64,000 nt of DNA, from assembly GCA_902493795.1 (NCBI GenBank), contig CABUQZ010000001.1, positions 38,697 to 102,696 of the forward strand. The letters are read 5' to 3'. Positions within the stretch are counted from its first letter, which is position 1; each line of letters starts with the position of its first letter. This stretch comes from an uncultured Clostridium sp. (lineage in GTDB: Bacteria > Bacillota_I > Bacilli_A > RF39 > UBA660). Position numbers and translations under genes: made by a program. Positions 5,177-51,536 of this stretch are shown here, in pieces. The notes beneath the pieces are model-generated. The model did not search any database and was not told the origin of the DNA. It was given only the letters and a program-made list of their open reading frames with translations.

Positions 5177-6601
5177 TTATAACCTTGCATTAAATATAAA
5201 CAAAATAACAAATATTGCCATAAATAATTCAAGTAATAGTTTCCATACAGCTTTTAGCCATTTACCATATGATACATCTGTATATGCAAGTGTAGACATC
5301 AAAATTACACTTGTTGGAGCAAACAACATAGTAAGTCCATACATTGATTGCCAAACTAATGCAGATAACCCTGCAGTCTTTGCAGTAGTTACAGCTAAAA
5401 TATAATATCCAGCAGAATTTGCTCCATAATATGATTCAACTGCAAATAAGCTAAACACTATTGCAACTATACACATAACAATTATTTGTGGAGATTCTGC
5501 TCCAAGATTAATTATATTTCTAACAATTGATAACTGAATTGGAACATTAGTTACAATAACTAATACTGTATAACACATTATAATTAATAATGCAGAGTAA
5601 ATTGCTTTTTTTGCACCTTCACCAAAATCTGTTAAGAAATCAGTAAATTTCTTTCTGTAGCAAAGGGATAATAAGTATCCAGCAAGTGCTACAACAAGAG
5701 CAGCTTCTAAAAGTGACCAAGCACCGAAAGCATTTTTTGTAGAAATTCCTAAAATTTTATTAAGATTTTCACACATAAATACTGCTTCATCACCAACTTT
5801 AGTGAAACTAGCAGTAATATCAGAAAAGAATGATATTTCAAATAAATCCCATGAAAAGAATGCCAATCCTAAAACTATTAATAAAACATCCAAAACTATA
5901 ACAATAGGATATGTTGTTTTATTTCTAGTTTCAACTTTTTCAGGTATACAATCTGAATTTACATTGCTTTCTACATTACGATGCTTTCTTGCATATAGAA
6001 TTGTGTTGATTAATACAATAGCTAATGATACTACTAGCAATATTAATTTGAAATAAAAGTTTGAACTTGCAGTTATTTTAAAAGAACTAAGAACATCAGT
6101 TATTCCAAATACATCATTAGCACTAAATACAGAACCAATTAATCCTGCTATTGTAGAACCAACAGTAAGCATTATTGCAGTAATTCTGTCATATCCCATT
6201 AATAATACTATAGATATTACAAAAGGGAATAACATCAACAATACTAAAGACATTCCTACCATTGATGATAATACTGCAAAAATTACTCCGATTATTATCA
6301 TAAATAACCATTCTAGACCATCAAATCCTTTAACAATTTTATCAAGTAGAACTCTATATTGAGGTATTTTATGTAAAACCCCATATAATCCACCTACTGC
6401 TAAAACAAATAAAGCAATATGGCCAAAATAACTAAGTGCTATTAAGAAATAATCTGCTACAGAGAACAAACCAACAACTGATGTATTATTTTGAGTTACA
6501 AATTCTCCATTTGAAACTCCAGTAATTGATAATGTCCAAGTTGCCATTACAACCAATAGAATAGTTATCAATAAAACCTTCAATAAATTATGCTTTTTCA
6601 T
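5177..6601 (-). CDS. Integral membrane transporter, IT superfamily (YfcC / C4-dicarboxylate anaerobic carrier-like)
   Basis: About 12 TM segments, roughly 475 aa; start MKKHNLLKV at 6601 preceded by AAAGGAGG (the tracked ORF begins 30 nt upstream). Confidence 0.45.
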   Translation of the reverse strand: MKKHNLLKVLLITILLVVMATWTLSITGVSNGEFVTQNNTSVVGLFSVADYFLIALSYFGHIALFVLAVGGLYGVLHKIPQYRVLLDKIVKGFDGLEWLFMIIIGVIFAVLSSMVGMSLVLLMLFPFVISIVLLMGYDRITAIMLTVGSTIAGLIGSVFSANDVFGITDVLSSFKITASSNFYFKLILLVVSLAIVLINTILYARKHRNVESNVNSDCIPEKVETRNKTTYPIVIVLDVLLIVLGLAFFSWDLFEISFFSDITASFTKVGDEAVFMCENLNKILGISTKNAFGAWSLLEAALVVALAGYLLSLCYRKKFTDFLTDFGEGAKKAIYSALLIIMCYTVLVIVTNVPIQLSIVRNIINLGAESPQIIVMCIVAIVFSLFAVESYYGANSAGYYILAVTTAKTAGLSALVWQSMYGLTMLFAPTSVILMSTLAYTDVSYGKWLKAVWKLLLELFMAIFVILFIFNARL

Positions 6602-6669
6602 TTTTCCTCCTTTAACAAAATTATACAACATTAAACCAAGGAATTACAACATTTTAAGCAAATTTATCT

Positions 6670-23498: not shown

Positions 23499-24392
23499 TT
23501 ACTCACTTATATTTAGTATTTCTAAAATTCTATTTAAATCATTTACATTGCTAAAAGAAATACTAATTTTATTAGAATTTATCTTTACTTTCGTTCCTAA
23601 CTTATCGCACATTACATTTTGAATATATTCATAATCATTATTTTTTGTTGTTTTTATTTTATGAGACTTTTCAATATTTCCTGTTTTAGAAACATTTTCA
23701 ATATCTCTAACGTTTAAGTTTTCATCAATAATTTTATTAGCTAAAGCCAAAATATCTTCTTTGTTTTCCATCTTACTAAGAACTCTTGCATGACTCATAG
23801 ATATTTTATTATCGATAATCATATCTTTAACTTCTTCAGGCAAATTTAAAAGTCCTAGCATATTAGTAATATAACTTCTACTTTTTCCTAGTCTGTTTGC
23901 TAGTTCTTCTTGAGTTATTTTCATAGCATCGATCAAACTTCTATATGCCATTGCTTCTTCTATTGAGTTTAAATTTTCTCTTTGCAAGTTTTCAAGCAAA
24001 GCAATTTCCATCATTTGTTGATCTGAAAAATCCCTTACGATAGCAGGTATTTTATCAATTTCTGCCATTTTACATGCTTTAACTCTTCTTTCACCCGCTA
24101 TTATTTCGTATCCCTTAATAGAACTTTTCTTAACTATTATTGGTTGAAATACTCCATGTTCTTTTATTGACTGAGCAAGTTCTTGAAGTTTTTCTTCATC
24201 AAAAACTTTTCTAGGTTGATATGGATTTGGTCTTAACTCATCAATTGGTAATTCTACTATTTCATCAACTGAAGTAGAATCAAGTATTTTTTCTTCAATT
24301 TGGTCAAAATTAATCTGTTCATTATTAAATAATTCTTCTAACCCTTTTCCAAGAGCTCTTCTTTTAAAATTACTATTGTCCATTTCTCTCAA
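23499..24392 (-). CDS. parB: Chromosome partitioning protein ParB/Spo0J
   Basis: LPIDELRPNPYQPRKVFDEEKLQELAQSIKEHGVFQPIIVKK...GYEIIAGERRVKA. Confidence 0.9.
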   Translation of the reverse strand: MREMDNSNFKRRALGKGLEELFNNEQINFDQIEEKILDSTSVDEIVELPIDELRPNPYQPRKVFDEEKLQELAQSIKEHGVFQPIIVKKSSIKGYEIIAGERRVKACKMAEIDKIPAIVRDFSDQQMMEIALLENLQRENLNSIEEAMAYRSLIDAMKITQEELANRLGKSRSYITNMLGLLNLPEEVKDMIIDNKISMSHARVLSKMENKEDILALANKIIDENLNVRDIENVSKTGNIEKSHKIKTTKNNDYEYIQNVMCDKLGTKVKINSNKISISFSNVNDLNRILEILNISE

Positions 24393-25158
24393 TCACTTCC
24401 TTAGCTAGATTTATATAGGCATCTGTTGCTCTACATTTTGGATCATAAGCAAGTATTGGTTTTCCATGTGAAGGACATTCAGCAAGTCTTACCAATCTTG
24501 GTATTATTGTATTATATACTCTTTCTTTAAAATACTTTCTAATTTCTTCAACGACTTCGAATCCTAAATTAGCTCTTGAATCAAGCATTGTAAGTAAAAC
24601 ACCTTCTATTTCCAAACTAGGATTCAATTGTTTTTGAGCCATCATAATTGTATTTAATAATTGCATTATTCCTTCAAGTGCTAAAAATTCACACTGAACC
24701 GGAATAATAACTGAATTAGAAGCTGTTAAAGCATTTATTGTAATAATACTTAAAGTTGGTGGACAATCAACTATTATATAATCATATTTATCTCTTATTG
24801 GATCTATTTTATTTTTTAATTGTGCACCCTTAACAAAATTAGGTTCTTCTTTAGATTTTTCAAAGAATTCCGTCTCTAATCCGCTTAAATTAACTGTAGC
24901 AGCAAGAAGATCTAGTCTATTATACTTCGTATGAATTATTGCTTCATCAATATTGCATTTTCCAATTAATACATCATATATTGTTCTATCTATATCACCC
25001 TTGTTCATACCAATTCCAGTTGTCGAATTACCTTGTGGGTCTAAATCTATAAGTAAAACTTTCTTACCTAAATAAGCTAAAGATGCAGATAAATTAATAC
25101 TAGTAGTAGTCTTTCCAACTCCACCTTTTTGATTAACAAGAGAAATCATTTTTCCCAT
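24373..25158 (-). CDS. parA: Chromosome partitioning ATPase ParA/Soj
   Basis: Deviant Walker A NQKGGVGKTTTSINLSA. Confidence 0.95.
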   Translation of the reverse strand: MGKMISLVNQKGGVGKTTTSINLSASLAYLGKKVLLIDLDPQGNSTTGIGMNKGDIDRTIYDVLIGKCNIDEAIIHTKYNRLDLLAATVNLSGLETEFFEKSKEEPNFVKGAQLKNKIDPIRDKYDYIIVDCPPTLSIITINALTASNSVIIPVQCEFLALEGIMQLLNTIMMAQKQLNPSLEIEGVLLTMLDSRANLGFEVVEEIRKYFKERVYNTIIPRLVRLAECPSHGKPILAYDPKCRATDAYINLAKEVIERNGQ

Positions 25159-25258: not shown

Positions 25259-26617
25259 TTATTTTTGTAAATTAATAGTTATCTTGTAACTAGAGTCACT
25301 ATCTGCTTCTTCAAAGCTAACTTTATATCCTTTACCTTCAAGTGAAGTAATTGCATTTTTTATATCAGCAATTGCAGGAGTTAAATCAGCTTTAGTTGGA
25401 ACAGCAATTCCAACAGATCCAATAGAACTAGCAACATTTACTGGTTCTTTAGCTATATTTGAGTTAAAAAATTGATCAAAATTATTAGTAGTTGGTGGTG
25501 GAGCTAAAGTAGAAGCTGTCGTTGTTTGCAAAGGAGATGTTGTAGTTTGTTCTTTATTTGCTGTTTGATTAAAACCAAACGTTGGAACAAATTTAAATCC
25601 ATCATTTTGTGGCTCAGTTGTATCTTTCATAAGATCTTTTACATCAACTGTTTCTGGTTTTATTCCACCTATATCAACAGAATTTTCTCTTATTTTATTT
25701 ATATCTATTGTTGTAGGATTATTTTGAGTTATAGGAGCACTTGTTTCTTTTACAGGTTCAGTTTCAGGCTCTGTAGATGAAGGTATTCCAAAATTAGCTA
25801 AATTAAATTGAGGTGCTGTTGTAGATTGTTCACTTGGTAACGAACTAACACTACCAATAGCTTGATTTTGAACATTTCCCACTATATCATTAGCTGTTAA
25901 CATATTATTAATTCCTATCTGGTTATTCATAGTAGCACCACCCTCAACTGTTCCACTTGGATTTACATTATCTGTTCCAGGTTTACTATCATTTATTAAC
26001 TTAATTTCTTTATCTAAATCTCTAACAGTCATCTTTTCATCAATGATTCTATTTAACATTTTTATTTGGTCATTTTTATCTTGAAGATTCAATAAGCTTC
26101 TTGCATGACGTTCAGAAATTTTCGTTTTTAACAAAGCATCTTGTACTTCATCTGGAAGAGCAAGCAATCTTAATTTATTAGATACAGAAGACTGTGTTTT
26201 ACCCATCGTTGCAGCAAGTTGCTCTTGAGTCATATTATCCTCAAGTTCTAGTATTTTTTGGTAAGTTCTTGCTTCTTCAATAGGAGTTAAATCCCTTCTT
26301 TGTAAGTTTTCAATTAATGCAACCTTAGAACTTTCTTTATCATCTAAATTTTTTACTATAGCAGGTATTTTAGTAAGTCCTGCCATAGTAGAAGCCTTAT
26401 ATCTACGTTCTCCTGCTATTATCTCATACTTATTATCAACTTTTCTAACAATAATGGGCTGAATAACCCCATGTTCCTTAATTGAAACAGCAAGTTCCTT
26501 TAATGCTTGATCATCAAAAACTTCTCTTGGCTGAAATCTATTAGGAATAATATCATCTAAATATAATGAAACTACTTCACTATTACCATCCATAACTAAC
26601 ACCCTCTTCTTATACAC
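25259..26617 (-). CDS. noc: Nucleoid occlusion protein Noc (ParB paralog) with a long low-complexity C-terminal extension
   Basis: IPNRFQPREVFDD..GVIQPIIVRK..EIIAGERRYKAS..KISERHARSLL matches Noc/ParB. Residues 230-415 are a T/P/Q/N-rich disordered tract, followed by a short C-terminal domain. Confidence 0.75.
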   Translation of the reverse strand: MYKKRVLVMDGNSEVVSLYLDDIIPNRFQPREVFDDQALKELAVSIKEHGVIQPIIVRKVDNKYEIIAGERRYKASTMAGLTKIPAIVKNLDDKESSKVALIENLQRRDLTPIEEARTYQKILELEDNMTQEQLAATMGKTQSSVSNKLRLLALPDEVQDALLKTKISERHARSLLNLQDKNDQIKMLNRIIDEKMTVRDLDKEIKLINDSKPGTDNVNPSGTVEGGATMNNQIGINNMLTANDIVGNVQNQAIGSVSSLPSEQSTTAPQFNLANFGIPSSTEPETEPVKETSAPITQNNPTTIDINKIRENSVDIGGIKPETVDVKDLMKDTTEPQNDGFKFVPTFGFNQTANKEQTTTSPLQTTTASTLAPPPTTNNFDQFFNSNIAKEPVNVASSIGSVGIAVPTKADLTPAIADIKNAITSLEGKGYKVSFEEADSDSSYKITINLQK

Positions 26618-26707: not shown

Positions 26708-28030
26708 TTATTTTAATTCTGGAACTGCATTTGTATCAGACGTTTCTACTCTTAAGAATCCATCATATTCTGCTGTTTCTCCAGGAGACAACGTTCTTCT
26801 TGTAGTATCATATTCAGATGGATAAAACGTATACTCATTATTATTTTTTACATACATTAATGGATTATAAGAATAAGCATTTTTAAACTCAGGAGGTGCT
26901 ACTAAAACAAATGACCAGTCTTTAACATCAGTAGAAGAAGTATTAGTAACATAAACATTATAATCTTCTACATAAGAGCTTCCTCCAGCTGTATAATAAC
27001 TTTTTCTTTCTAATCTAACTTTTAATGTAGGAAGTTCAGCATACATATCATTTGAATCTCCAACTACACCACCATGTGATGTTCCTTCATGAGTACCATC
27101 GATAAGTTCAACATATTGAATATTACCATTTTTCAATATAAACTCTTTGTCTTTAGGGAACTTAATTTGGAATCCACTATTGAAATTGCTATGTGATGCA
27201 TTTAAATAGTTCCATGTAGATTGAGATGGATTTCCTATAACTTTTAATTTAGTTCCATTTAATTCAAGCTTTACTAAGCTTTGATCAAATCCAGGATTAT
27301 CTAGAATTGTTCCTTCTGGTACATCAAAAGTTGCATCAAATGACTTAATTGTCGACAAGTTACCAATATTTGTAACATCAATTGCAGCATTATAACAAAC
27401 TTTATAATCACCTTGAATACTACATCTATCTAAACGAACATCTATTTTTAATTTCAAGTCTTTATAAATCCATGTAATGTTATCTGTTGTTGTTGTAGTA
27501 GTAATATTTTGTTCAATTGTTTCTTTAGATGTACAGTTTGCATTATATACGACAACATGTTCTTTCCCCTCGATTGATTGAATCTTAACATCTGATATAG
27601 ATAATCCAGCTTCAATTAAATCGGCATCCAAATCATCGTATTTTGTTAAATCTTTAATTCCTTGTCCTGTTTCATCAACACTTGTCCAATAATAATCATA
27701 TCCATTACCATTGTAAGTAACAACTATATAGGCACTGACGAAATCACCATATGGTGAAACTGGTTTATCTCCGTTTTCAAGGTTAATACAAGAAGATGGA
27801 ATGTAATAAGTAACTGAGGAATCGTATGCTTCTAACTTACCGCTATTAACTAAAACTCTAGCACCGCCAATAACTTGTTTTGCTGTATCGACATATGCAT
27901 TTTTCCTTGAACTAGAGATATATGAAGTAACACTAGGAATTGCAATTATCATCAATATACCCAATATGATAATAACTGCTAATAATTCAATTAAAGTAAA
28001 CCCTTTCTTATTCTTTTTTTTCATTTTCAT
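26708..28030 (-). CDS. Type IV prepilin-like protein (N-terminal methylation motif) with a large C-terminal extension containing two repeated beta-rich modules
   Basis: Class III signal KKGFTLIELLAVIIILGIL. The C-terminal half has two modules of about 90 aa sharing VTN..G...W / GF motifs, reminiscent of carbohydrate-binding or Ig-like domains. Confidence 0.7.
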   Translation of the reverse strand: MKMKKKNKKGFTLIELLAVIIILGILMIIAIPSVTSYISSSRKNAYVDTAKQVIGGARVLVNSGKLEAYDSSVTYYIPSSCINLENGDKPVSPYGDFVSAYIVVTYNGNGYDYYWTSVDETGQGIKDLTKYDDLDADLIEAGLSISDVKIQSIEGKEHVVVYNANCTSKETIEQNITTTTTTDNITWIYKDLKLKIDVRLDRCSIQGDYKVCYNAAIDVTNIGNLSTIKSFDATFDVPEGTILDNPGFDQSLVKLELNGTKLKVIGNPSQSTWNYLNASHSNFNSGFQIKFPKDKEFILKNGNIQYVELIDGTHEGTSHGGVVGDSNDMYAELPTLKVRLERKSYYTAGGSSYVEDYNVYVTNTSSTDVKDWSFVLVAPPEFKNAYSYNPLMYVKNNNEYTFYPSEYDTTRRTLSPGETAEYDGFLRVETSDTNAVPELK

Positions 28031-30716: not shown

Positions 30717-33700
30717 CTATTCCTTTTCTTTAGCGACAGTCAACATTAGTTTTATTCTATTAACTTGATTAGTATGACTTGCTCCTGGATCATAATCAAT
30801 AGCAACAATATTACTATCTGGATAAAGTTTTCTTACCTTTTTAATTACTGCCTTACCTACTATGTGATTAGGAAGACAAGCAAAAGGTTGAACACAAACA
30901 ATATTATTTATACCTTCTTTAATAAGTTCAACCATCTCTCCAGTTAAGAACCATCCTTCACCAGTTTGATTTCCAACAGACAATATTCCTTCAACATTAT
31001 CAGCAAGTTTATAAATATCAACACTTTTTCTAAATCTAGTACCCTCTAACGCTTTATCTATTGGTTTCTCATATAAATGGATAATTTCAAGCATTTTTTT
31101 ACATAAGTAAGAGTAAAATGACCCTGTCTTAAACAATTTATCTTTAATTAAGCTATTATAAGCACAATACTTAACAAATCCCATAAGTTCAGGAGCACAT
31201 ACTTCTACTCCTTCTTTTTCAAGTTTATCAACTAAATGGTCATTTCCAAACGTATGATACTTAATAAGTATTTCACCAACAATTCCAACTTTAGGTAATT
31301 TTTTATCTTCTATTTCAATCTCACTAAATCTTTTAACAATTTTATTTATATTTTTCTTATATTCTTTAAATTTTCCATGATACAATGACTCTTCACACAT
31401 TTTTTCAAGCTCATCATACACTCTATTAGTTTCACCTTTGTTAACTTCATAAGGTCTAGTAGCATAGCTAAGTTTCATTAATAAATCACCATAACTTACT
31501 GCTTGAAGTAATTTATTGATAAGTGAAATATTTAAATGGAACGCTTGATCTTTTTCAAGTCCAGAAAAATTCAAAGACATAACTGAAACTTGAGGAAGCC
31601 CAGCATCTACTAAAGCTTTTCTAATTAGTCCTATATAGTTAGTAGCACGACATCCACCACCAGTTTGGGTTAAAATGACACTAGTATTATTAACATCATA
31701 TTTTCCACTAAGCAAAGTATGTACAAGTTGGCCTATAACTATAATTGCAGGATAACAAGCATCATTATTAACATATTTTAACCCTGTTTCAATCATTTCT
31801 TCAGTTGTTTCTTTTAAATATACAGGTTTATATCCTTGTGATAACAATGTTGCGCCCAACAAAGGCATATGAAATTGCGAAACATCAGGAAATAACAATA
31901 TATGTTTTTTATCGGCTTCACTAAAAGTATTCTTTTGATAACTATATGTTTCATATTCTTTATCATTTTGTCTTTTATTCATAGATGCAATTAAAGATCG
32001 AATTCTAATCTTTGCAGTACCTAAATTATTTACTTCATCTATTTTAATTGTAGTAAATAACTTATTATTAAATCTTAATATTTCTTCAGCTTGATCTGTT
32101 ACTATCGCATCAAGTCCACATCCAAAAGAATTTAAATTAACAAGTTCTAGGTTATCATAGCGACTTACAACATCACACGTATTAAATATTCTAGCATGGT
32201 ATTCCCATTGATTCATTACTCTCATTTTAGATTTAATTTTACTTAGATGACAAATTGAGTCTTCTGATAACACAGCAAGGCCTAAAGAATTTATCATAGT
32301 ATCAATTCCATGATTTACTTCTTTATCCAAATGATATGGACGCCCAGCAAGAACAATTGCCTTCTCATTATGTTTTAAAATATATTCTAAGAATTCTTCA
32401 CCCTTATCTTGAACGTCTTTTTTAAACTTTTCTTGTTCTTTAAACCCTAAAGCAACAGCTTTTTTAACTTCACTCTTTTTAAACTTGTATTTCTTAAATT
32501 CAGGAATTTCTAATAATCTCAAAACAAGTTTTTCTTGTTCAATAGGTAAAAATGGATTTATATAAGTTATATTGTTCTTCTCGATATCTTCAACATTTAA
32601 TTTAATTGCTTCACTATAAGAAGTTACTATTGGACAGTTATAATGGTTATCTGAGTTATCAAATTCACTTCTTTCATACATCAAACAAGGATAAAATATT
32701 GTCTTTACTCCTTTATTTATTAAATTGATAATATGTCCATGTACTAGTTTTGCAGGATAGCAAACTGATTCACTAGGCATTGATTCAATACCGCTTTCAT
32801 ATATTCTTCTATTAGAATGATCTGAAATAACAACTTTAAATCCCAAATTAGTGAATATTGTAAACCATAAAGGATAATCTTCATACATATTAAGTACTCT
32901 TGGAATACCTATTTCTCCACGTGGAGCATCTTCTATTGGTTTATAATCAAATAATCTATCATACTTCCAAGCATACATATTGGGTAATGTTGAACTGCTT
33001 CCATTGTTACCACTACCTCTTTCACACCTGTTACCAGAAATAAACCTTTTCTTATCAAACATATTTATTGTTAATGCACAATGGTTTTCACATCCCTGGC
33101 ATCTTGTGTTTGTTGTCTTAACCTTTTGATTTAATAGTTCTTCTTTAGAAAGCATAGAACTTACTATATCTTTATCGTCATACTTATTAAAGTTATCAAG
33201 AGCAATTAAAGCTACTCCATAAGCCCCCATAAGTCCAGCTATATCAGGTCTAATTACTTCTTTATGCGTAATATTTTCAAAAGCTTTTAAGACAGCATCA
33301 TTTAAGAATGTTCCACCCTGAACAACTATCTTTTCTCCTAGAGTAGTCATATCTCTTATTTTCATAACTTTTTGAATGGCATTACGAATAACAGAATAAG
33401 AAAGCCCAGCAAAAATATCACCTAAAGGTCTTCCCTCTTTTTGAGTTTGTTTTATTTTACTATTCATAAATACTGTACAACGACTACCTAAATCTATTGG
33501 AGACTTACTCTTAACAGCTAAGTCTACAAAATCATTAACTGTCATACCTAAGCTCTTAGCAAGTGTTTCAATAAAAGAACCACATCCACTAGAACAAGCT
33601 TCATTTAACATTATAGAGTTAACTGCACCATCTTTAATTCTGATGTACTTCATATCTTGTCCACCAATATCTATGATACTTTCAACTCCAGGCAAGAAAT

Positions 33701-34961
33701 AATTAGCAGCTTCATAATGAGCCATTGTCTCTATTTCACTAATATCAAGATTAAACGCTGTTTTAATAAGCATTTCACCATAACCAGTTGAACCACTTTG
33801 CCTAATAATAACTTTAGGAGGAAGTTTACTATATAAATCAAGGATCATTTCCTTAGCAGTATCATAAGGAGTACCTTTATTGCTTTGATAATTTTCATAT
33901 AGTAATTCCCCATCACTACTTATCAAAACAACCTTACAAGTTGTACTTCCAGCATCTATTCCTACAAATGCATCTCCAACATAACTATTTAAATCTCTTT
34001 TCTTAATTGAGGACTTTTTATGACGTTTTAAAAACTTTTCATAATCTTTATTATCTTTAAATAATGCTGGTAAATTATTAGATTCCTCTTCTTTAAAAGA
34101 CTCTAGTTTTTCCTGTATTTTTTTAAATTCTTTAATATCAAATACATTTTTCTTTTCTTTATCAAGTATTGCACCAATACACACAAAAACTTTTGTATCG
34201 ATATTAGGGTTAACCACTTCATCATCATTTAAGTTCAAAGTACTAATAAATCTATCTTTTAAACTAGATAAATAAGTAAGAGGTCCTCCCAAAAATATAA
34301 CATTACCCTTTATTGGCTTACCACAAGCAAGTCCACTTATTGTTTGGTTAACAACTGCTTGCATTATAGAAAGAGCTACATCTTCTTTTTTAGCTCCTTC
34401 ATTTAAAAGAGGTTGAACATCTGCTTTTGCAAACACCCCACAACGAGAAGCTATTGGGTAAATTGTTTTACCATTCTTAGCTAAATCATTAAGTCCTTCT
34501 GTTGTTGTATTCAAAAGTACTGCCATTTGATCCAAAAAAGAACCTGTTCCACCAGCACAAGAACCATTCATTCTTTGTTCTATTGTTTGATCAAAATATA
34601 TAATTTTAGCATCTTCCCCACCAAGCTCAATACACACATCAGTTTGAGGAACAAATTCCATAATAGCATTCTTACATGCAATTACTTCTTGAACAAAGTT
34701 AACATCCAAAAACTTAGCAAGTGCAATAGCACCACTACCAGTCATTGTTAATGTATAATTGTAACCTTTAAACTTTTCCATAATTTCAGAAAACAAAGTA
34801 AAAATTGTTTTCTTAGTATCTGAAAAATGTCTTCTATATTCACAAAATAAAATATTATTTTCTTTATCCATTACAACTGCTTTAACAGTAGTTGAACCAA
34901 CATCTAATCCTATATTTACTACTTTCATATAAATTACCACCGATAAAAATAATAGTAACAC
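30717..34961 (-). CDS. Fusion protein: two BadF/BadG/BcrA/BcrD-type ATPase (CoA-substrate-specific enzyme activase) domains, a DUF2229-like Cys-rich segment and a 2-hydroxyacyl-CoA dehydratase D-component (HgdB)-like domain
   Basis: Two acetate/sugar-kinase-fold blocks (NIGLDVGSTTVKAVV and FVGIDAGSTTCKVVL); Cys cluster RCQGCENHCALT..CERGSG; C-terminal HgdB-like region (~520 aa); 1414 aa in total. Confidence 0.65.
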   Translation of the reverse strand: MLLLFLSVVIYMKVVNIGLDVGSTTVKAVVMDKENNILFCEYRRHFSDTKKTIFTLFSEIMEKFKGYNYTLTMTGSGAIALAKFLDVNFVQEVIACKNAIMEFVPQTDVCIELGGEDAKIIYFDQTIEQRMNGSCAGGTGSFLDQMAVLLNTTTEGLNDLAKNGKTIYPIASRCGVFAKADVQPLLNEGAKKEDVALSIMQAVVNQTISGLACGKPIKGNVIFLGGPLTYLSSLKDRFISTLNLNDDEVVNPNIDTKVFVCIGAILDKEKKNVFDIKEFKKIQEKLESFKEEESNNLPALFKDNKDYEKFLKRHKKSSIKKRDLNSYVGDAFVGIDAGSTTCKVVLISSDGELLYENYQSNKGTPYDTAKEMILDLYSKLPPKVIIRQSGSTGYGEMLIKTAFNLDISEIETMAHYEAANYFLPGVESIIDIGGQDMKYIRIKDGAVNSIMLNEACSSGCGSFIETLAKSLGMTVNDFVDLAVKSKSPIDLGSRCTVFMNSKIKQTQKEGRPLGDIFAGLSYSVIRNAIQKVMKIRDMTTLGEKIVVQGGTFLNDAVLKAFENITHKEVIRPDIAGLMGAYGVALIALDNFNKYDDKDIVSSMLSKEELLNQKVKTTNTRCQGCENHCALTINMFDKKRFISGNRCERGSGNNGSSSTLPNMYAWKYDRLFDYKPIEDAPRGEIGIPRVLNMYEDYPLWFTIFTNLGFKVVISDHSNRRIYESGIESMPSESVCYPAKLVHGHIINLINKGVKTIFYPCLMYERSEFDNSDNHYNCPIVTSYSEAIKLNVEDIEKNNITYINPFLPIEQEKLVLRLLEIPEFKKYKFKKSEVKKAVALGFKEQEKFKKDVQDKGEEFLEYILKHNEKAIVLAGRPYHLDKEVNHGIDTMINSLGLAVLSEDSICHLSKIKSKMRVMNQWEYHARIFNTCDVVSRYDNLELVNLNSFGCGLDAIVTDQAEEILRFNNKLFTTIKIDEVNNLGTAKIRIRSLIASMNKRQNDKEYETYSYQKNTFSEADKKHILLFPDVSQFHMPLLGATLLSQGYKPVYLKETTEEMIETGLKYVNNDACYPAIIVIGQLVHTLLSGKYDVNNTSVILTQTGGGCRATNYIGLIRKALVDAGLPQVSVMSLNFSGLEKDQAFHLNISLINKLLQAVSYGDLLMKLSYATRPYEVNKGETNRVYDELEKMCEESLYHGKFKEYKKNINKIVKRFSEIEIEDKKLPKVGIVGEILIKYHTFGNDHLVDKLEKEGVEVCAPELMGFVKYCAYNSLIKDKLFKTGSFYSYLCKKMLEIIHLYEKPIDKALEGTRFRKSVDIYKLADNVEGILSVGNQTGEGWFLTGEMVELIKEGINNIVCVQPFACLPNHIVGKAVIKKVRKLYPDSNIVAIDYDPGASHTNQVNRIKLMLTVAKEKE

Positions 34962-38825: not shown

Positions 38826-40208
38826 ATGAACAACAATTCTATACTTTGGACAAAGATTCTTGAAAAGATCAAAAGTGAAATCAATTCTTTATCTTTTCAA
38901 ACATGGTTTGAAGAAACCACTTTGTACGATTTTAGTAACGGAGTAGCGAAGATAATTGTTCCTTATGCATTACACAAGGACCACTTAGCAAATAACTACA
39001 AAAAGCTTATAACTTCATGTTTTATTGAAGAAATAGGGGAACCAGTTGAACTTGAATTCCTAATCCAAGAGGAAATAGAAGAGCAAGATGAACTCCTAAA
39101 TGAACCAGAAATAAAGTTAGATTTTAATGACAATATATATAAGGATGTCAAAGATACTAATTTTGAATCACATTTGGATAAAAAATACACATTCGAAAAC
39201 TTTGTAGTAGGAAATACTAACAAATTTGCCCATGCAGCAGCACTTGCAGTAGCAGAAAAACCTGGAACTATGTATAATCCTCTGTTTATATATGGAAATA
39301 GTGGGTTAGGGAAGACCCATTTGATGCATGCAATAGGAAATTACATAGAAAAGAACTCAAATAAAAAAGTTTTATATATAACAAGTGAGACTTTTGTAAA
39401 TGATTTCATTGAAATTACAAGGAAAAAAGAAGAAAAAAGTAATTTTGAAAACATTGATTTCTTTAAGAAAAAATATAGAGATATAGATGTTCTAATTGTT
39501 GATGATATTCAGTTTTTAGCTAAAAAGAATGAATCTCAAAAAGAATTTTTCCATACATTTAACAACTTATATGGTGATGATAAACAAATAATCATATCTT
39601 CAGATAGATCGCCAAATGACTTGAAAATATTTGAGGATAGGTTAAGAACAAGATTCAATTGGGGATTACCAGTTAATATTTATCCACCAGATTTTGACTT
39701 AAAAGTTGCTATATTAAAGAAAAGAATAGCAGCAGAAGCCATGAATACTGATATACCTGATAATGTTATAGAATATATGGCATCAAATATAGGAACAGAC
39801 ATAAGAAGTTTGGAAGCTAGTCTGAATAGATTGTTTGCATATTCAACAATGATGGGAGCAGATATAACACTAGATTTAGCAATAGAAGCCCTAAAAGACT
39901 ATATAAATGCTGGATTTAGTGAAAAAAATGACGTAGGAAAAATCCAAAAATTAGTAGCAGATTACTTTAAAGTATCAATTGATGACCTAAAATCTAAGAA
40001 AAGAAACGCTGATTTAGCATTTCCAAGACAAATTGCTATGTATCTCTGTAGAAAACATACTGATGAATCTTTTCCTAAGATAGGGCTAGAGTTTGGTGGA
40101 AAAGACCATACAACTGTTATGCACTCTTGTTACAAGATAGAAAAAGAGATAAAAAATAACAAAAATTTAGCTGAAGAAATTGATAAACTTGAAAAAGAAT
40201 TACATTAA
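38826..40208 (+). CDS. dnaA: Chromosomal replication initiator DnaA
   Basis: GNSGLGKTHLMHAIGN ... C-terminal DNA-binding domain. Confidence 0.97.
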   Translation: MNNNSILWTKILEKIKSEINSLSFQTWFEETTLYDFSNGVAKIIVPYALHKDHLANNYKKLITSCFIEEIGEPVELEFLIQEEIEEQDELLNEPEIKLDFNDNIYKDVKDTNFESHLDKKYTFENFVVGNTNKFAHAAALAVAEKPGTMYNPLFIYGNSGLGKTHLMHAIGNYIEKNSNKKVLYITSETFVNDFIEITRKKEEKSNFENIDFFKKKYRDIDVLIVDDIQFLAKKNESQKEFFHTFNNLYGDDKQIIISSDRSPNDLKIFEDRLRTRFNWGLPVNIYPPDFDLKVAILKKRIAAEAMNTDIPDNVIEYMASNIGTDIRSLEASLNRLFAYSTMMGADITLDLAIEALKDYINAGFSEKNDVGKIQKLVADYFKVSIDDLKSKKRNADLAFPRQIAMYLCRKHTDESFPKIGLEFGGKDHTTVMHSCYKIEKEIKNNKNLAEEIDKLEKELH

Positions 40209-41545: not shown

Positions 41546-42004
41546 ATGAACAATTATGAAATTAATGAAGATACGTATGCAATTATTTCACAGAATAGTG
41601 GAAAAACAAGAATAGTAGAAAGAAAATATGAGTTAGATGTGGAAAAAAATGCATACGAAATTATGGATGAAAGCTGTAAATACTATGGAAGTAGCTATAA
41701 GGGTAGAATAGAAGCTGCTAAAGATATTTTAAATTGTAGCTATAAACTGCCAATACTAGTAGAGGAGAGTAGTGCATTAATATTTTTTCCAATTAAGTCT
41801 TCTTTATTAGAAGATTGCTGTTGGATTAATCTTAATAGCATTGATAATATTGAAAAACAGAATAATAAATCTATTGTGACATTTAAAAATGGTAAAAAAG
41901 TGACCTTTGATATTTCTAAACTTTCACTAGAAAATCAAATTTATAGATCATCTAAATTAGAGTCAATAATTTATAAAAGAAAAAGTGCAAAAAAAAGGGA
42001 TTAA
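41546..42004 (+). CDS. comK: ComK-family competence transcription factor homolog
   Basis: SCKYYGSSYKGR, KLPILVEESSALIFFPIKS, CCWINL, VTFKNGKKVTFDISKLSLENQIYRSSKL align with conserved blocks of B. subtilis ComK. Confidence 0.7.
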   Translation: MNNYEINEDTYAIISQNSGKTRIVERKYELDVEKNAYEIMDESCKYYGSSYKGRIEAAKDILNCSYKLPILVEESSALIFFPIKSSLLEDCCWINLNSIDNIEKQNNKSIVTFKNGKKVTFDISKLSLENQIYRSSKLESIIYKRKSAKKRD

Positions 42005-47763: not shown

Positions 47764-47804
47764 TAATTTAGTTGTAATTTATTAATTAATATAGTAAAAT
47801 TTAA

Positions 47805-47892
47805 TTGATGCAATAAGTACGGCAGAACTAGGTCAGGACAGGAATGTAGCAGCCTTAATGCTTATAAAAATTTGTACTTATGTGCATCATTT
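47805..47892 (+). ncRNA. ffs: Signal recognition particle RNA (small 4.5S-type)
   Basis: Domain IV motif AGGUCAGG-ACA-GGAA-UGU-AGCAGCC closes a GGAA tetraloop. The 5' segment GATGCAATAAGTAC pairs with the 3' segment GTACTTATGTGCATC. A tadA-scr-dnaX neighbourhood is known from Bacillus. Confidence 0.7.
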
Positions 47893-47913
47893 TTTTTGGA
47901 GTTGTGGAAGTAT

Positions 47914-48336
47914 ATGATCAAAGATGATTTATATTATATGAATCAAGCCTATAATGAAGCATTAAAGGCCTATGATAAAAATGAAATTCCAGTAGGAGCT
48001 GTAATTGTATGTAATGGAAAAATTATAGCAAGAGGACATAATTTAAGAGATTCGAGCAATATTGTGACAAAACATGCAGAAATCATAGCAATAGAAAAAG
48101 CAAATAAAAAGAAAAAAAACTGGAGATTAATAGATTGCATTCTATATACTACATTAGAGCCATGTAATATGTGCAAAGAGGTAATAAAAGAAACAAAAAT
48201 AAACAAAGTTATCTACGGAGCAAGTGGTAAAAATCCAAGTAAAGAGGAAAAAATAATTCAAATTAAAGATCAAAATATAATAGCACAGTGTGAGAATATT
48301 ATTTGTAAAATGTTCAAAAATATAAGAGAAAAGTAA
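47914..48336 (+). CDS. tadA: tRNA-specific adenosine deaminase TadA
   Basis: HAEIIAIEKA ... TLEPCNMCKEVI zinc-binding motifs. Start placed at MIKDD to avoid overlapping ffs (the tracked ORF starts at 47872). Confidence 0.85.
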   Translation: MIKDDLYYMNQAYNEALKAYDKNEIPVGAVIVCNGKIIARGHNLRDSSNIVTKHAEIIAIEKANKKKKNWRLIDCILYTTLEPCNMCKEVIKETKINKVIYGASGKNPSKEEKIIQIKDQNIIAQCENIICKMFKNIREK

Positions 48337-48346
48337 TATAAAAAAT

Positions 48347-48372
48347 TGTGGATAAAAGTTTCACGTGAAACG
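48347..48372 (+). promoter_or_regulatory. Composite element 1: DnaA box TGTGGATAA (48347-48355) abutting parS-like AGTTTCACGTGAAACG (14/16)
   Basis: Direct sequence match; 1-nt gap. Confidence 0.7.
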
Positions 48373-48465
48373 AAGTAAAAAAAATCTACGTAATAATTCC
48401 AATAATAGATTATTTATTGGAATTTTTTTTTGAAAATATTTCCTTATTACATTTTTTATTTAAAT

Positions 48466-48850
48466 ATATTATTTCTTGGGAAATATTCTATAAATTATTT
48501 CCCAAAGACCATAGATAGTAAAAATATATTTCCCGAGAAATATTTATATATAATTATTATCTTAATATATTAGTTGTTAAAAAAAATATTTCCTGGGAAA
48601 TATTCGATAAATTATTTCCCAAAAACTATAAATAGTAAAAAATATATTTCCCGGGAAATAATTATATGTAATTATTATCCAATATAATAGTTGTTGAAAA
48701 AAAATTTTTCCCAGGAAATATTCTATAAATTATTTCCCAAAAACTATAAATAGTAAAAAATATATTTCCCGGGAAATAATTATATGTAATTATTATCCAA
48801 TACAATAGTTGTTGAAAAAAAATATTTCCTAGGAATTATATAAATATTTT
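48466..48850. repeat. About 3.2 tandem copies of a 119-bp repeat, each carrying two Noc-binding-site-like palindromes
   Basis: Unit starts at about 48466, 48586, 48704 and 48823. Perfect ATTTCCCGGGAAAT at 48646-48659 and 48764-48777. Variants with 1-3 mismatches: ATTTCTTGGGAAAT (48471), ATTTCCCGAGAAAT (48528), ATTTCCTGGGAAAT (48588), TTTTCCCAGGAAAT (48706), ATTTCCTAGGAATT (48825). Confidence 0.85.
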
Positions 48851-49135
48851 ATATAAAGTATTAATTAAAGAATAGTGATTGCAATTTTATTTTAAGAATA
48901 ATCTTTTTATATTATATAAGATTATTTTTATTTGTGGAAAAAGAAATATATAGTTTTAATAATAAAGAAAATAAACGAAGAAAAAATATTTAATAATAAA
49001 CATATTTTATAAAAAATAAATTTTGTATATGCATCTTGTTGATAAAAGTTATAAGTGGCAAAAGAGAAGAAAATATAAATGAAAAAATGGTAAAACGAAG
49101 AAAAAAAGATTAATTTATTAAATACAAACAGTTTA

Positions 49136-49161
49136 TGTGGATAAATGTTTCACGTGAAACA
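49136..49161 (+). promoter_or_regulatory. Composite element 2: perfect DnaA box TGTGGATAA plus perfect parS TGTTTCACGTGAAACA (49146-49161)
   Basis: 16/16 match to the Bacillus-type parS consensus TGTTNCACGTGAAACA. Confidence 0.85.
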
Positions 49162-49250
49162 TAATAATAATCTGGAAAAAGGAAGTAATAAACAAAATAG
49201 GTGAAAAACAGAACGGAGAATAAGATATTGATGAATAAATTAAGAAATCA

Positions 49251-49275
49251 AAAGGATAAAGTTTCATGTGAAACT
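49251..49275 (+). promoter_or_regulatory. Composite element 3 (degenerate): AAAGGATAA plus AGTTTCATGTGAAACT (13/16)
   Basis: Same architecture as the other units, with mismatches. Confidence 0.45.
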
Positions 49276-49375
49276 ATTGATAGTGGAAAAAGATATTATA
49301 TAGAATAAAAAAGAAAGTAAAACGGAGAAAAAAAGTTTTATATATAACATTTAAGAAAAATAATATGAACATTTT

Positions 49376-49400
49376 TGTGAATAATGTTTCACGTGAAACA
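49376..49400 (+). promoter_or_regulatory. Composite element 4: DnaA box TGTGAATAA plus perfect parS TGTTTCACGTGAAACA (49385-49400)
   Basis: 16/16 parS; the box has one mismatch. Confidence 0.85.
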
Positions 49401-49488
49401 TAAAACTTAGTGGAAAATATAAAAAATATTAATAATTTGATATGATTATAATTGTGACTAAATGCTTTATGTATCAAAATTTCTAGAT

Positions 49489-49513
49489 TGTGGAAAAAGT
49501 TTCACGTGAAACA
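49489..49513 (+). promoter_or_regulatory. Composite element 5: DnaA box TGTGGAAAA plus parS AGTTTCACGTGAAACA (15/16)
   Basis: Direct sequence match. Confidence 0.75.
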
Positions 49514-49585
49514 TTATAAATAAAATGTAGAATATAACTTATAAATAATATTTTAAATAATAATGTAATAAAAACGGTTGTGCTT

Positions 49586-49686
49586 TGTGGATAAAAATTG
49601 TTGATTAAAAAAATAGAAATATATGTAAAGTAAAATAAAAATAGAATATTAAAAAATAATTTTTATATATTTTTTATTGTGGATAA
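49586..49686 (+). promoter_or_regulatory. Two further perfect DnaA boxes (TGTGGATAA at 49586-49594 and 49678-49686) inside an almost pure A/T tract (49600-49900)
   Basis: 9/9 consensus boxes in the same orientation as the composite units; the flanking DNA is over 90% AT. Confidence 0.7.
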
Positions 49687-49930
49687 AATTTAAAAAAACA
49701 AAAAAATATGTGTTTTAACACTTTTTATATCAAGAAAATAACAAAAATGTAATAATAATATTTATATGTATGATTTTGCTTATAAAATATTTTTATAGAT
49801 AAAAAATAATGTTTTTATATAATGTCAATATGTATGCTTAAAAATAAATGTAAAGTATGTAAATATACGTAAAAATAATGATAACTTGTTGATAAAAAAT
49901 ATATTCAAAATGTCTGTAAAATAAAATATT

Positions 49931-49967: not shown

Positions 49968-51536
49968 ATGGAATATCAGACATTATATAGAAAATATAGA
50001 CCTAAGAATTTTGATGAAGTTGTGGGACAAAAAGTAACTATTCAAATATTGAAAAATGCTTTGAACAAAAATAAATTGTCTCATGCGTATCTTTTTTATG
50101 GACCACGTGGAACTGGAAAAACATCAATTGCCAAAATACTTTCAAGAACGATCAATTGTGAACATCACGAAGATGGAATTCCATGCGAAGAATGCACAAG
50201 TTGTTTAGCATCCATTAATCCAGGATGTGTGGATATTATAGAAATAGATGCGGCTTCAAATAATGGTGTTGATGAAATAAGAGAATTAAAAAATAACGTT
50301 ACTTTTGTTCCATCTGAATTAAAATACAAGGTATATATTGTTGATGAGGTGCATATGCTTTCTTCAAGTGCCTTTAACGCACTATTAAAAACATTAGAAG
50401 AACCACCAGCTCACGCTATATTTATTCTTGCAACTACAGAGTTTCAGAAAGTTCCGTTGACTATTGTTTCTAGATGCCAAACTCTTGAATTTAAAAAAAT
50501 TGATGATATTTCAATGACACAAAAGTTAAAAGAAATCTCTTTAAAAGAAAATATCAAAATAGATGATACTGGCTTAAAAGAAATATGTAAATATTCTAAT
50601 GGAGGACTTCGTGATGCAATAGGAATACTTGAAAAAGCAATTGCATATACTGATGATACAATCACAGATAATACCATAAAAGAAATATCTGGTAATATAT
50701 CTGATAGTGAACTTGAGATGTTTACAAAAATGTTTGATGATAAAAATATTGAAGGAATTATTCAAAAAATATCTGACTATTATAACGAAGGTATTGATCT
50801 AATAAAATTGTCTAATAATTTAATTGATTATAATAGAAATAAGATGATTAACACAAAAAAATATTCTACTAAAACATGTAGTTTACTAATTGAATTAGAT
50901 AAAATGGTATCTAATATGGAAAAGTCAGAAAATCCAAAAACTTTGTTAGAAGCAACTATAATTAATTTTCTTATTGATAAAAAAGAAGAAAATATACCAA
51001 ATAATAGTAACGTTTCTAAGAATGTTAATCAAATAGATACAGAATCAACTGAGCAAAATAATAATGAAGTAAAACCAATAGAAGAAAAGCCTGTTTCAAT
51101 AGAAACAAAAGATGATTTAATAGAGATAAGGGTTAACAATACTCTATGTAATCCTCAAAAAAATATTATTTCAGAAATAAGAAATAATTGGGATAAAATG
51201 AAAGATTATGCGTTTGATGAGGAATTTGGTAACATAGCAAGATTATTATCATCTGATGTGGTGCCAGTTGCAGCAAGTGATACAAACGTAGTATTAACAT
51301 CAAAAATGGGTGGAATAGCAACACAAATTAATACTGAACTAGACACTGTGGAAAAAATATTTAACAAAATCTTCAATAAGAAATATAAGGTAATTTGTTT
51401 ATCTGAAACAACGTGGAAAAAATATACTGAAGAATATAGAGAAAATAAATCGAAATTTACTTATATTGAAGAAAAAATAAACGAAAAAAAGAATAAGACA
51501 TTAAAAGAAAAAGCAAGAGAATTATTTGATGAATAG
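49968..51536 (+). CDS. dnaX: DNA polymerase III subunit gamma/tau
   Basis: YRPKNFDEVVGQ ... GPRGTGKTSIAKIL ... zinc module CEHHEDGIPCEECTSC. Start at MEYQTLY with RBS GGGGGA (the tracked ORF begins 7 codons upstream). Confidence 0.95.
   Translation: MEYQTLYRKYRPKNFDEVVGQKVTIQILKNALNKNKLSHAYLFYGPRGTGKTSIAKILSRTINCEHHEDGIPCEECTSCLASINPGCVDIIEIDAASNNGVDEIRELKNNVTFVPSELKYKVYIVDEVHMLSSSAFNALLKTLEEPPAHAIFILATTEFQKVPLTIVSRCQTLEFKKIDDISMTQKLKEISLKENIKIDDTGLKEICKYSNGGLRDAIGILEKAIAYTDDTITDNTIKEISGNISDSELEMFTKMFDDKNIEGIIQKISDYYNEGIDLIKLSNNLIDYNRNKMINTKKYSTKTCSLLIELDKMVSNMEKSENPKTLLEATIINFLIDKKEENIPNNSNVSKNVNQIDTESTEQNNNEVKPIEEKPVSIETKDDLIEIRVNNTLCNPQKNIISEIRNNWDKMKDYAFDEEFGNIARLLSSDVVPVAASDTNVVLTSKMGGIATQINTELDTVEKIFNKIFNKKYKVICLSETTWKKYTEEYRENKSKFTYIEEKINEKKNKTLKEKARELFDE

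Follow-up and report, generated by a model that had tools for sequence, protein, structure and literature searches.

How DNA-binding specificity diverges after gene duplication is classically illustrated by Noc and ParB, and Noc biology as known so far rests on a membrane helix at the N terminus and on dispersed chromosomal sites. Clustered sites for ParB-family proteins are familiar from multi-parS origins (Corynebacterium, Myxococcus, Streptomyces), where one site type is read by one ParB working with ParA, and from F-plasmid sopC, where SopB, a member of the ParB family, binds a 16-bp inverted repeat in each of 12 tandem 43-bp repeats; the RacA-ram system of sporulating Bacillus subtilis uses a reader that does not belong to the ParB family, and its sites extend over hundreds of kb and are not tandem. 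Noc-binding sites (NBS) number about 70 in B. subtilis. They are “scattered around the chromosome” (PMC8429893), and S. aureus Noc is found at 41 loci across the chromosome half nearer the origin (PMC5540599). Here we describe a different arrangement, a tandem array of NBS-type palindromes beside a parS cluster, in a 64,000-nucleotide stretch of an uncultured Clostridium sp. (assembly GCA_902493795.1, contig CABUQZ010000001.1, positions 38,697 to 102,696; hereafter the window, in whose numbering all coordinates are given), which also encodes a Noc-like ParB paralogue and a Spo0J/ParB. Judged from its sequence, the array is probably a cluster of loading sites for the Noc-type paralogue that forms, together with parS, a composite origin-proximal two-clamp cluster kept by selection across a clade of gut bacteria.

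A tandem array of NBS-type palindromes

Tandem Repeats Finder calls the array at 48470-48839 with a period of 118 bp, 3.1 copies and 91% matches (score 605). It calls it at periods of 58-60 bp as well (5.6-6.9 copies, 67-71% matches), and the 118-bp unit is therefore a dimer of two diverged ~59-bp subunits. Each subunit contains one palindrome related to the 14-mer NBS ATTTCCCGGGAAAT, and seven such palindromes follow one another at distances of 57-60 bp:

48462-48839, no strand: tandem NBS array, at least 3.1 copies (Tandem Repeats Finder and repeat search)
48471-48484: NBS-like site 1, ATTTCTTGGGAAAT, 2 mismatches
48528-48541: NBS-like site 2, ATTTCCCGAGAAAT, 1 mismatch
48588-48601: NBS-like site 3, ATTTCCTGGGAAAT, 1 mismatch, which falls on the tolerant position 7
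48646-48659: NBS site 4, exact ATTTCCCGGGAAAT, 0 mismatches
48706-48719: NBS-like site 5, TTTTCCCAGGAAAT, 2 mismatches
48764-48777: NBS site 6, exact ATTTCCCGGGAAAT, 0 mismatches, directly left of the scaffold-gap junction
48824-48837: NBS-like site 7, degenerate, ATTTCCTAGGAATT, 3 mismatches
48779-48780: scaffold-gap junction (100 N removed, array sequence missing), located by comparison with the source scaffold

Two exact and five near NBS sites thus lie inside 370 bp. At the GC content of the window, an exact 14-mer has a chance of ~2e-9 per position; with up to 3 mismatches allowed, the full window holds 12 matches versus a shuffle mean of 2.55 (shuffle maximum 7), and with up to 2 mismatches none is found in the other 62 kb of the window. 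The palindromes keep both bases, A1 and C6, that set NBS apart from parS (11 of 14 half-sites), which supports their assignment as NBS-type sites.

The first-pass annotation of this DNA had described about 3.2 copies of a 119-bp unit, each with two inverted repeats some 59 bp apart, and had counted two exact 14-mers and five variants with 1-3 mismatches. The tandem organization, the paired repeats, their spacing and the mismatch counts (2, 1, 1, 0, 2, 0 and 3) all stand; the unit measures 118 bp and the copies number at least 3.1. Its figure of 6-7 sites matches the seven present in the sequence but, as a total, can only be a lower bound, given the gap in the array. It had also placed the array beside parS and DnaA boxes 10 kb from dnaA, in agreement with the five parS sites and nine DnaA boxes that share the 1.6-kb tadA-dnaX spacer with the array, 9.6 kb to the right of the dnaA start.

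The window contains no N and agrees with the ENA scaffold ZEEV15-1_SAMEA3664605 scaffold_85 (ERZ28657878, 134 kb, human-gut metagenome), from which one 100-N run has been removed. Because this run falls within the array, the last unit of which is joined across it, the array copy number is a lower bound only. Is the array then real? Of six independent Logan short-read contigs that contain tadA, four stop within the array (at 48529-48636), as expected where assembly meets such a repeat; three of these four include the first three sites and one the first site alone, and a fifth contig stops at 48342, upstream of the array. The array is real and is found in several samples, though it is not resolved by short reads.

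The array belongs to a wider pattern. A DNA-pattern scan of one genome per species (185,579 species), with two NBS-like cores 30-60 bp apart as the query, returned at least 120 stretches; the scan counts that follow are among the matches listed. Twelve come from low-GC (23-30%) metagenome-assembled genomes (MAGs) of uncultured gut “Bacilli”, “Erysipelotrichaceae” or “Tenericutes”. All 12 are syntenic with the window (gyrB-gyrA-tadA-dnaX-ybaB-recR; GyrA identity 63-76%), and 11 have NBS and parS together in the spacers that flank tadA. The two site types alternate strictly in three of these genomes (L012, L017 and L043), in 5-8 tandem units of 62, 72 and 64 bp, respectively, with mostly exact NBS; in the other genomes of the 11, the NBS cluster adjoins the parS cluster. 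As the scan loci were ascertained through their NBS, relatives picked by DnaX homology alone (52-84% identity) provide an unbiased test, and all seven have NBS and parS clusters in the same spacers, although some of these assemblies may share species with scan matches (e.g., L134 resembles L008). In ~226 kb of origin-proximal DNA, 59 NBS with up to 1 mismatch lie in 23.5 kb of spacer and five in the other 202.6 kb, with ~0.002 expected by chance.

The repeats themselves differ from genome to genome, with tandem periods of 62, 64, 72, 105, 106, 115, 116, 118 and 126 bp, and the NBS in relatives are mostly exact. The closest relative, L132 (DnaX 84%), has no 118-bp amplification yet retains three NBS and two parS. 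Repeats turn over while sites persist; what selection acts on is therefore the sites and how many there are, rather than the sequence of the repeats. The comparison with related genomes called for in the first-pass annotation thus finds the array type conserved at the same locus, and across these genomes the pairing of NBS with parS at gyrA-tadA-dnaX is a trait kept by the clade, not the oddity of one strain.

NBS pairs also turn up in other places. In L082 (a “Tenericutes” MAG), two NBS, one of them exact, and a perfect DnaA box lie within the dnaX coding region (6575-6651); L067 has, besides its gyrA-tadA NBS/parS cluster, two exact NBS 51 bp apart in the recF-gyrB spacer (2295-2359). Exact or near-exact pairs with no parS nearby and no origin synteny occur in L102 (348-432), L125 (226-300), L071 (2003-2062) and L111 (7878-7935), whose hosts, listed together, are other Firmicutes: Clostridium sp. 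CAG:138, a Limnochordia MAG, a Ruminococcaceae MAG and Lapidilactobacillus concavus. Most listed matches are repeats in high-GC genomes that resemble repetitive extragenic palindromic (REP) elements, with 2-mismatch sites and without parS. In Amycolatopsis palatopharyngis and A. marina, a paired TTTCCNNGGAAA pattern recurs at dozens of loci per genome (L015, L023, L028 and ~35 more) and looks like a dispersed REP-like palindromic family unrelated to NBS.

How distinct are the two site types? All palindromes that fit NTTTCNC followed by GNGAAAN were collected from 19 spacers, with the positions that distinguish parS from NBS left free. Among the 156 palindromes found, 77 have G1/A6 in either half and so count as pure parS, 71 have A1/C6 in either half and count as pure NBS, and none is a chimera of a parS half and an NBS half; counted as half-sites (n = 312), 147 are A1/C6, 157 are G1/A6 and eight are other. 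NBS variation concentrates at position 7, which is common to both types. Such strict bimodality without chimeras points to two distinct, orthogonal readers.

Candidate readers of the two site types

Two ParB-family paralogues are encoded in the window, together with a ParA-family ATPase:

25259-26593, minus strand: Noc-like ParB paralogue, 444 amino acids, with Q173/K179/A184/R201, 22 kb from the array
24373-25158, minus strand: soj/parA, ParA-family ATPase (Pfam matches at syntenic locus L128)
23499-24383, minus strand: spo0J/parB, 294 amino acids, with R173, the ParA-binding motif LGKGL and an S where G201 would be

The Noc-like paralogue is, to judge by its residues, most likely the cognate reader of the array. 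Its gene holds the place of noc in the order rsmG-noc-soj-spo0J, to which the window adds one pilin-like gene after rsmG, and starts at an ATG at 26593 with a ribosome-binding site; the product is identical to a 444-residue database protein. Its top matches among solved structures are Geobacillus Noc (219 bits) and B. subtilis Noc (190 bits), versus 173 bits for Spo0J, and its top family is the NCBIfam Noc family TIGR04285, though aligned over positions 1-201 of the 255-position model only. The added gene (26708-28030, minus strand) lies between rsmG and the Noc-like gene and encodes a 440-residue protein with a prepilin-type N-terminal cleavage/methylation domain; L128 is without it, and rsmG there stands directly ahead of the Noc-like gene.

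The residues that matter for reading are nearly invariant: Q173, K179 and R201 occur together in 119 of 120 Noc-like homologues (395-521 residues, all from uncultured Bacilli). A1 is recognized by Q173 and C6 by R201, and a lysine at just one of the positions 179 and 184 suffices to license binding (Jalal 2020, PMC7383237); the QKAR combination is not listed as a non-functional, hybrid-specific or promiscuous variant in the available portion of that study. The motifs for binding cytidine triphosphate (CTP), GERR and ENLQR, are present, and IAGERRYKA and IENLQRR are invariant among 39 aligned homologues. The ParA-binding motif LG[KR]GL is found in none of the 120 homologues of this long Noc-like protein versus 119 of 120 ParB homologues. 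The longest contigs of the long Noc-like and DnaX homologues have identical sizes (150318, 290428 and 450881), with the two genes >10 kb apart, which suggests that genomes that bear the array also encode the long Noc-like protein.

The clade’s ParB has a peculiarity of its own: the position equivalent to Caulobacter G201 is S in 119 of 120 homologues (P0241-P0360), which display the quartets RMNS, RMSS and RMTS. Jalal 2020 (PMC7383237) describes G201 as absolutely invariant among extant ParB proteins and, from a mutational scan, S or T at this position as characteristic of variants with dual specificity. Taken together, the specificity residues of the two window paralogues (Q173/K179/A184/R201 in the Noc-like protein, R173 in the Spo0J-like protein) support a fit to two site types. 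The first-pass annotation had spoken of two ParB-family proteins with two adjacent site arrays; these residues, together with the pairing kept across the clade, agree with that picture.

Yet the Noc-like protein does not qualify as a canonical Noc. To function, Noc needs an amphipathic helix at its N terminus (residues 1-15, with F5/F8/F9), and across Noc proteins the conservation of this helix is extreme (Adams 2015, PMC4331003; Jalal 2021, PMC8429893). No such membrane-targeting helix is present in the Noc-like protein, whose residues 5-6 align with Noc residues 27-28. Upstream of its start there are at most eight in-frame codons, and all 120 homologues have just 14-18 residues ahead of PNRFQPR, ~23 fewer than B. 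subtilis Noc. An AlphaFold2 model built on 39 homologues predicts a confident DNA-binding domain (85-203), a low-confidence region (205-400) with short helices at 298-304 and 373-376, and a confident C-terminal domain (405-443) of one helix and two strands.

The low-confidence linker includes islands conserved across homologues, NPTxVDINKIRENSVDIGG, FKFVPSF and [NK]Fxx[FL]Fxx N, which in the window protein read DINKIRENSVDIGG from residue 297, FKFVPTF at 333 and FDQFFNSN at 372; they could be partner-binding or membrane-binding motifs. The FxxFF island, which is FDQFFNSN at residue 372 and is shared by 94 of 120 homologues, is reminiscent of the core of Noc's membrane helix, F5/F8/F9, and a hydrophobic-moment scan of the protein did not single it out. 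We hypothesize that this island might act as an internal, relocated membrane anchor. The first-pass annotation was right to call this Noc unusual and partly disordered; its coordinates (25259-26617) need the start moved to 26593, and its 220-residue disordered tail is instead a ~200-residue linker with conserved motifs ahead of a folded C-terminal domain. The Noc-DNA-membrane complex that it envisaged loses its basis in the sequence with the missing helix.

The tadA-dnaX spacer and its surroundings

The window has the gene order of an origin region, rnpA-yidC-jag-mnmE ... followed by dnaA-dnaN-comK-like-recF-gyrB-gyrA-SRP RNA (signal recognition particle RNA)-tadA-[spacer]-dnaX-ybaB-recR. The spacer lies among these features:

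38826-40208, plus strand: dnaA, with oriC marked by the switch of gene strand and GC skew at ~38.3-38.8 kb
47914-48336, plus strand: tadA, left flank of the spacer
48347-48372: composite of a perfect DnaA box, TGTGGATAA, and parS, AGTTTCACGTGAAACG, right behind the tadA stop
49136-49513: parS cluster of four sites at intervals of 113-125 bp, exact at 49146 and 49385, with 3 mismatches at 49260 and with 1 mismatch at 49498
49586-49594 and 49678-49686, minus strand: two more perfect DnaA boxes, between the parS cluster and dnaX
49968-51536, plus strand: dnaX, right flank of the spacer

The five parS sites of the spacer thus start at 48357, 49146, 49260, 49385 and 49498. Its nine DnaA boxes with up to 1 mismatch (48347-49895) are all on the minus strand, and four of the window’s five perfect boxes, TTATCCACA, fall within it. 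A box with up to 1 mismatch precedes three of the four parS sites of the cluster, and a degenerate GGATAA-type remnant precedes the site at 49260. Boxes and parS form a composite element in five copies, with a DnaA-type box 0-1 nt ahead of parS (consensus TGTGGATAA-A-WGTTTCACGTGAAAC), at up to 1 mismatch in four copies and degenerate at 49260; in three relatives (L030, L083 and L096), TGTTGATAA is placed 17-25 nt past the parS start.

Could the array derive from an RNA or protein gene? At the gathering threshold, the only Rfam match is the SRP RNA upstream of tadA; a permissive Rfam scan of the spacer gives a single sub-threshold match (26.6 bits versus a threshold of 48); and the open reading frames (ORFs) of the spacer are short mechanical ones, none of them credible and none annotated in the source assembly. 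On these results, an RNA gene or a coding origin was rejected. A scan for promoters and terminators was uninformative in such AT-rich DNA (33 found versus 26.5 expected).

Several features of the surroundings merit mention. The small SRP RNA (47804-47894, plus strand) lies upstream of tadA; in B. subtilis, it lies downstream. A mechanical ORF that starts tadA at a TTG (47872) overlaps this RNA, and the true tadA start is the ATG at 47914. A ComK-family ORF of 152 residues (41546-42004, plus strand) stands between dnaN and recF, as it does in L128 and L067. Between mnmE and mnmG, a 1414-residue ORF (30717-34961, minus strand) has two acyl-CoA dehydratase activase (BcrAD/BadFG-type) domains and is missing in syntenic L128.

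Function, alternatives and known systems

How would a two-clamp cluster work? Each 14-bp palindrome would load one dimer of the Noc-like protein. If this dimer behaves like those of B. subtilis Noc and ParB, CTP binding would then shut it into a clamp able to slide onto the DNA on either side. Many head-to-tail sites would make a high-flux loading zone, as at multi-parS origins or sopC; the adjoining or interleaved parS would load Spo0J/ParB, and the two clamps would occupy one region. Selection would maintain this composite cluster at gyrA-tadA-dnaX in uncultured low-GC gut Bacilli, while the site-bearing repeats turn over fast. The sequences show the sites, their non-random clustering, their conservation and synteny, the bimodality of the two types and the two paralogues with their specificity residues; the assignment of protein to site, CTP-dependent spreading and all downstream function are what we infer.

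Least certain is what the complex would be for. The missing membrane helix and the concentration of sites at one origin-proximal locus lead us to favor a role centered on the origin or centromere (organizing, positioning or tethering the origin, possibly with DnaA or ParB cross-talk) rather than classical nucleoid occlusion throughout the chromosome. In S. aureus, Noc extends 8-10 kb outward from its sites and holds back the initiation of replication (PMC5540599); with the array 9.6 kb from dnaA and within a cluster of DnaA boxes, cross-talk with initiation is conceivable here. A bolder proposal, which we put forward tentatively, is that the Noc lineage was repurposed in this clade: a factor for nucleoid occlusion, dispersed and membrane-tethering, would have become a second clamp of the centromere type; this clamp might load at NBS arrays alternating with parS, co-assemble with ParB in a dual-clamp origin complex and act through its linker motifs (e.g., in origin tethering or in recruiting division or replication factors), with the co-evolved S201 of ParB keeping the site types orthogonal.

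Several observations weigh against a composite cluster read by the Noc-like paralogue. The protein misses the TIGR04285 cut-off (287.3 versus 315 bits), has A rather than K at position 184 and is barely nearer to Noc than to its own ParB (51% identity to ParB); it could be an independently derived paralogue. The clade’s ParB, with its S201, might read NBS as well. On the DNA side, five of the seven array sites are off consensus, two of these at position 6; the scaffold gap makes the copy number ambiguous; and the 12 loci of the pattern scan owe their detection to paired NBS.

If the 14-mer is the same as the NBS of B. subtilis and S. aureus and the Noc-like gene sits in the noc position, might the array serve classical nucleoid occlusion, as the strongest of many dispersed NBS at which a Noc-DNA-membrane complex nucleates? 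The conserved FxxFF of the linker (94 of 120 homologues), which looks like the core of the Noc helix and is predicted to form a short helix, could be taken to favor this. We nevertheless consider it unlikely: the canonical helix is missing, with just 14-18 residues ahead of PNRFQPR in all 120 homologues, the hydrophobic-moment scan passed over FxxFF, and the other 62 kb of the window offer no further NBS at up to 2 mismatches. Another alternative is a single reader: a relaxed or dual-specificity Spo0J/ParB would bind both site types, NBS would be extra ParB loading sites, and the Noc-like protein would be employed elsewhere. The S at an otherwise invariant G201 position in 119 of 120 homologues fits this idea, as do the physical interleaving of NBS and parS in several genomes and the prevalence of S or T at 201 among the dual-specificity variants of Jalal 2020 (PMC7383237), where, however, parS-specific variants also include R173 with S201. 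A tolerant reader would not enforce bimodality, and chimeras are absent from all 156 palindromes, G1/C6 or A1/A6 half-sites being essentially nil; moreover, a paralogue with invariant Q173 and R201 is kept in the same genomes. A single relaxed reader is therefore quite improbable.

Evenly spaced palindromes in an intergenic region upstream of dnaX might also be operators through which dnaX or tadA is regulated by some unrelated transcription factor, but this is very improbable, since their place relative to genes varies among genomes (upstream or downstream of tadA, in the recF-gyrB spacer, inside dnaX), they almost always accompany parS, 14 of 14 positions equal the experimentally defined NBS, and the spacer matches no Rfam family and has no credible ORF. 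Nor does a neutral minisatellite, a dispersed REP-like element or an assembly artefact with a chance likeness to NBS have more than the slimmest chance of being right. The 91-96% identity of the 118-bp units points to recent amplification, the scaffold gap falls within the array, and the search pattern also matches REP-like repeats in Amycolatopsis and other high-GC genomes; but conservation of the sites extends over genomes with repeat units of different lengths and sequences, each low-GC genome has one locus, always syntenic (among the matches listed), and the high-GC matches are of another kind, in that their sites have 2 mismatches, parS is absent and every genome has dozens of loci. Of the six independent assemblies, moreover, three (L003, L004 and L007; the base-level comparison covers these three) agree in the sequence of the first three sites, the same sites being found in a fourth, which speaks against an artefact.

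The composite two-clamp cluster thus remains the reading that we prefer. The lineage keeps the NBS/parS dichotomy orthogonal yet co-locates both types, often in strict alternation, at one origin-proximal locus, and it has lost the membrane helix and gained a disordered linker that bears motifs. If true, this would be a second, centromere-like mode of action for Noc-type proteins and a natural test bed for how two clamps interact when they share DNA; it could also have a bearing on the connection, so far unexplained, of Noc with the initiation of replication in S. aureus, where the 8-10 kb of spreading equals the array-to-oriC distance. Two proteins and two sites of 14-16 bp, all defined by sequence, suffice for in vitro tests.

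In full-text literature searches, of incomplete coverage, every description of NBS concerned dispersed sites, those of B. subtilis or S. aureus, and no natural NBS arrays, alternating parS/NBS arrays or helix-less Noc proteins with long linkers were found. NBS, parS and clamps of the Noc/ParB type are already known; the architecture of the array and the protein variant are new as far as these searches reach.

The nearest known system is Noc-NBS itself. The array shares its 14-bp core palindrome ATTTCCCGGGAAAT with B. subtilis and S. aureus, and the presumed reader shares with Noc its descent from ParB, its place upstream of soj-spo0J, Q173/K179/R201, the CTP-binding motifs and the lack of a ParA-binding motif. 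Unlike NBS that are dispersed singly, the sites here are tandem or clustered at one conserved locus adjoining parS; unlike known Noc proteins, the Noc-like protein lacks the essential N-terminal helix, has a ~200-residue disordered, motif-bearing linker and falls below the TIGR04285 cut-off. As in chromosomal parS clusters, several palindromic clamp-loading sites lie within a few kb close to oriC, but parS is joined here, by interleaving or side by side, by a second type of site, for a paralogue that has no ParA-binding motif. The head-to-tail units of variable copy number, each with one ParB-family palindrome, recall sopC, which in contrast resides on a plasmid beside its own sopAB operon and has a single site type; the array is chromosomal and paired with parS, and 22 kb separate it from the gene that encodes its presumed reader. 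Finally, the array may be likened to RacA-ram, in which GC-rich 14-bp palindromes near the origin serve to organize or tether the origin region rather than to drive ParA-based segregation; unlike ram, the array is tandem, and its presumed reader belongs to the ParB family.

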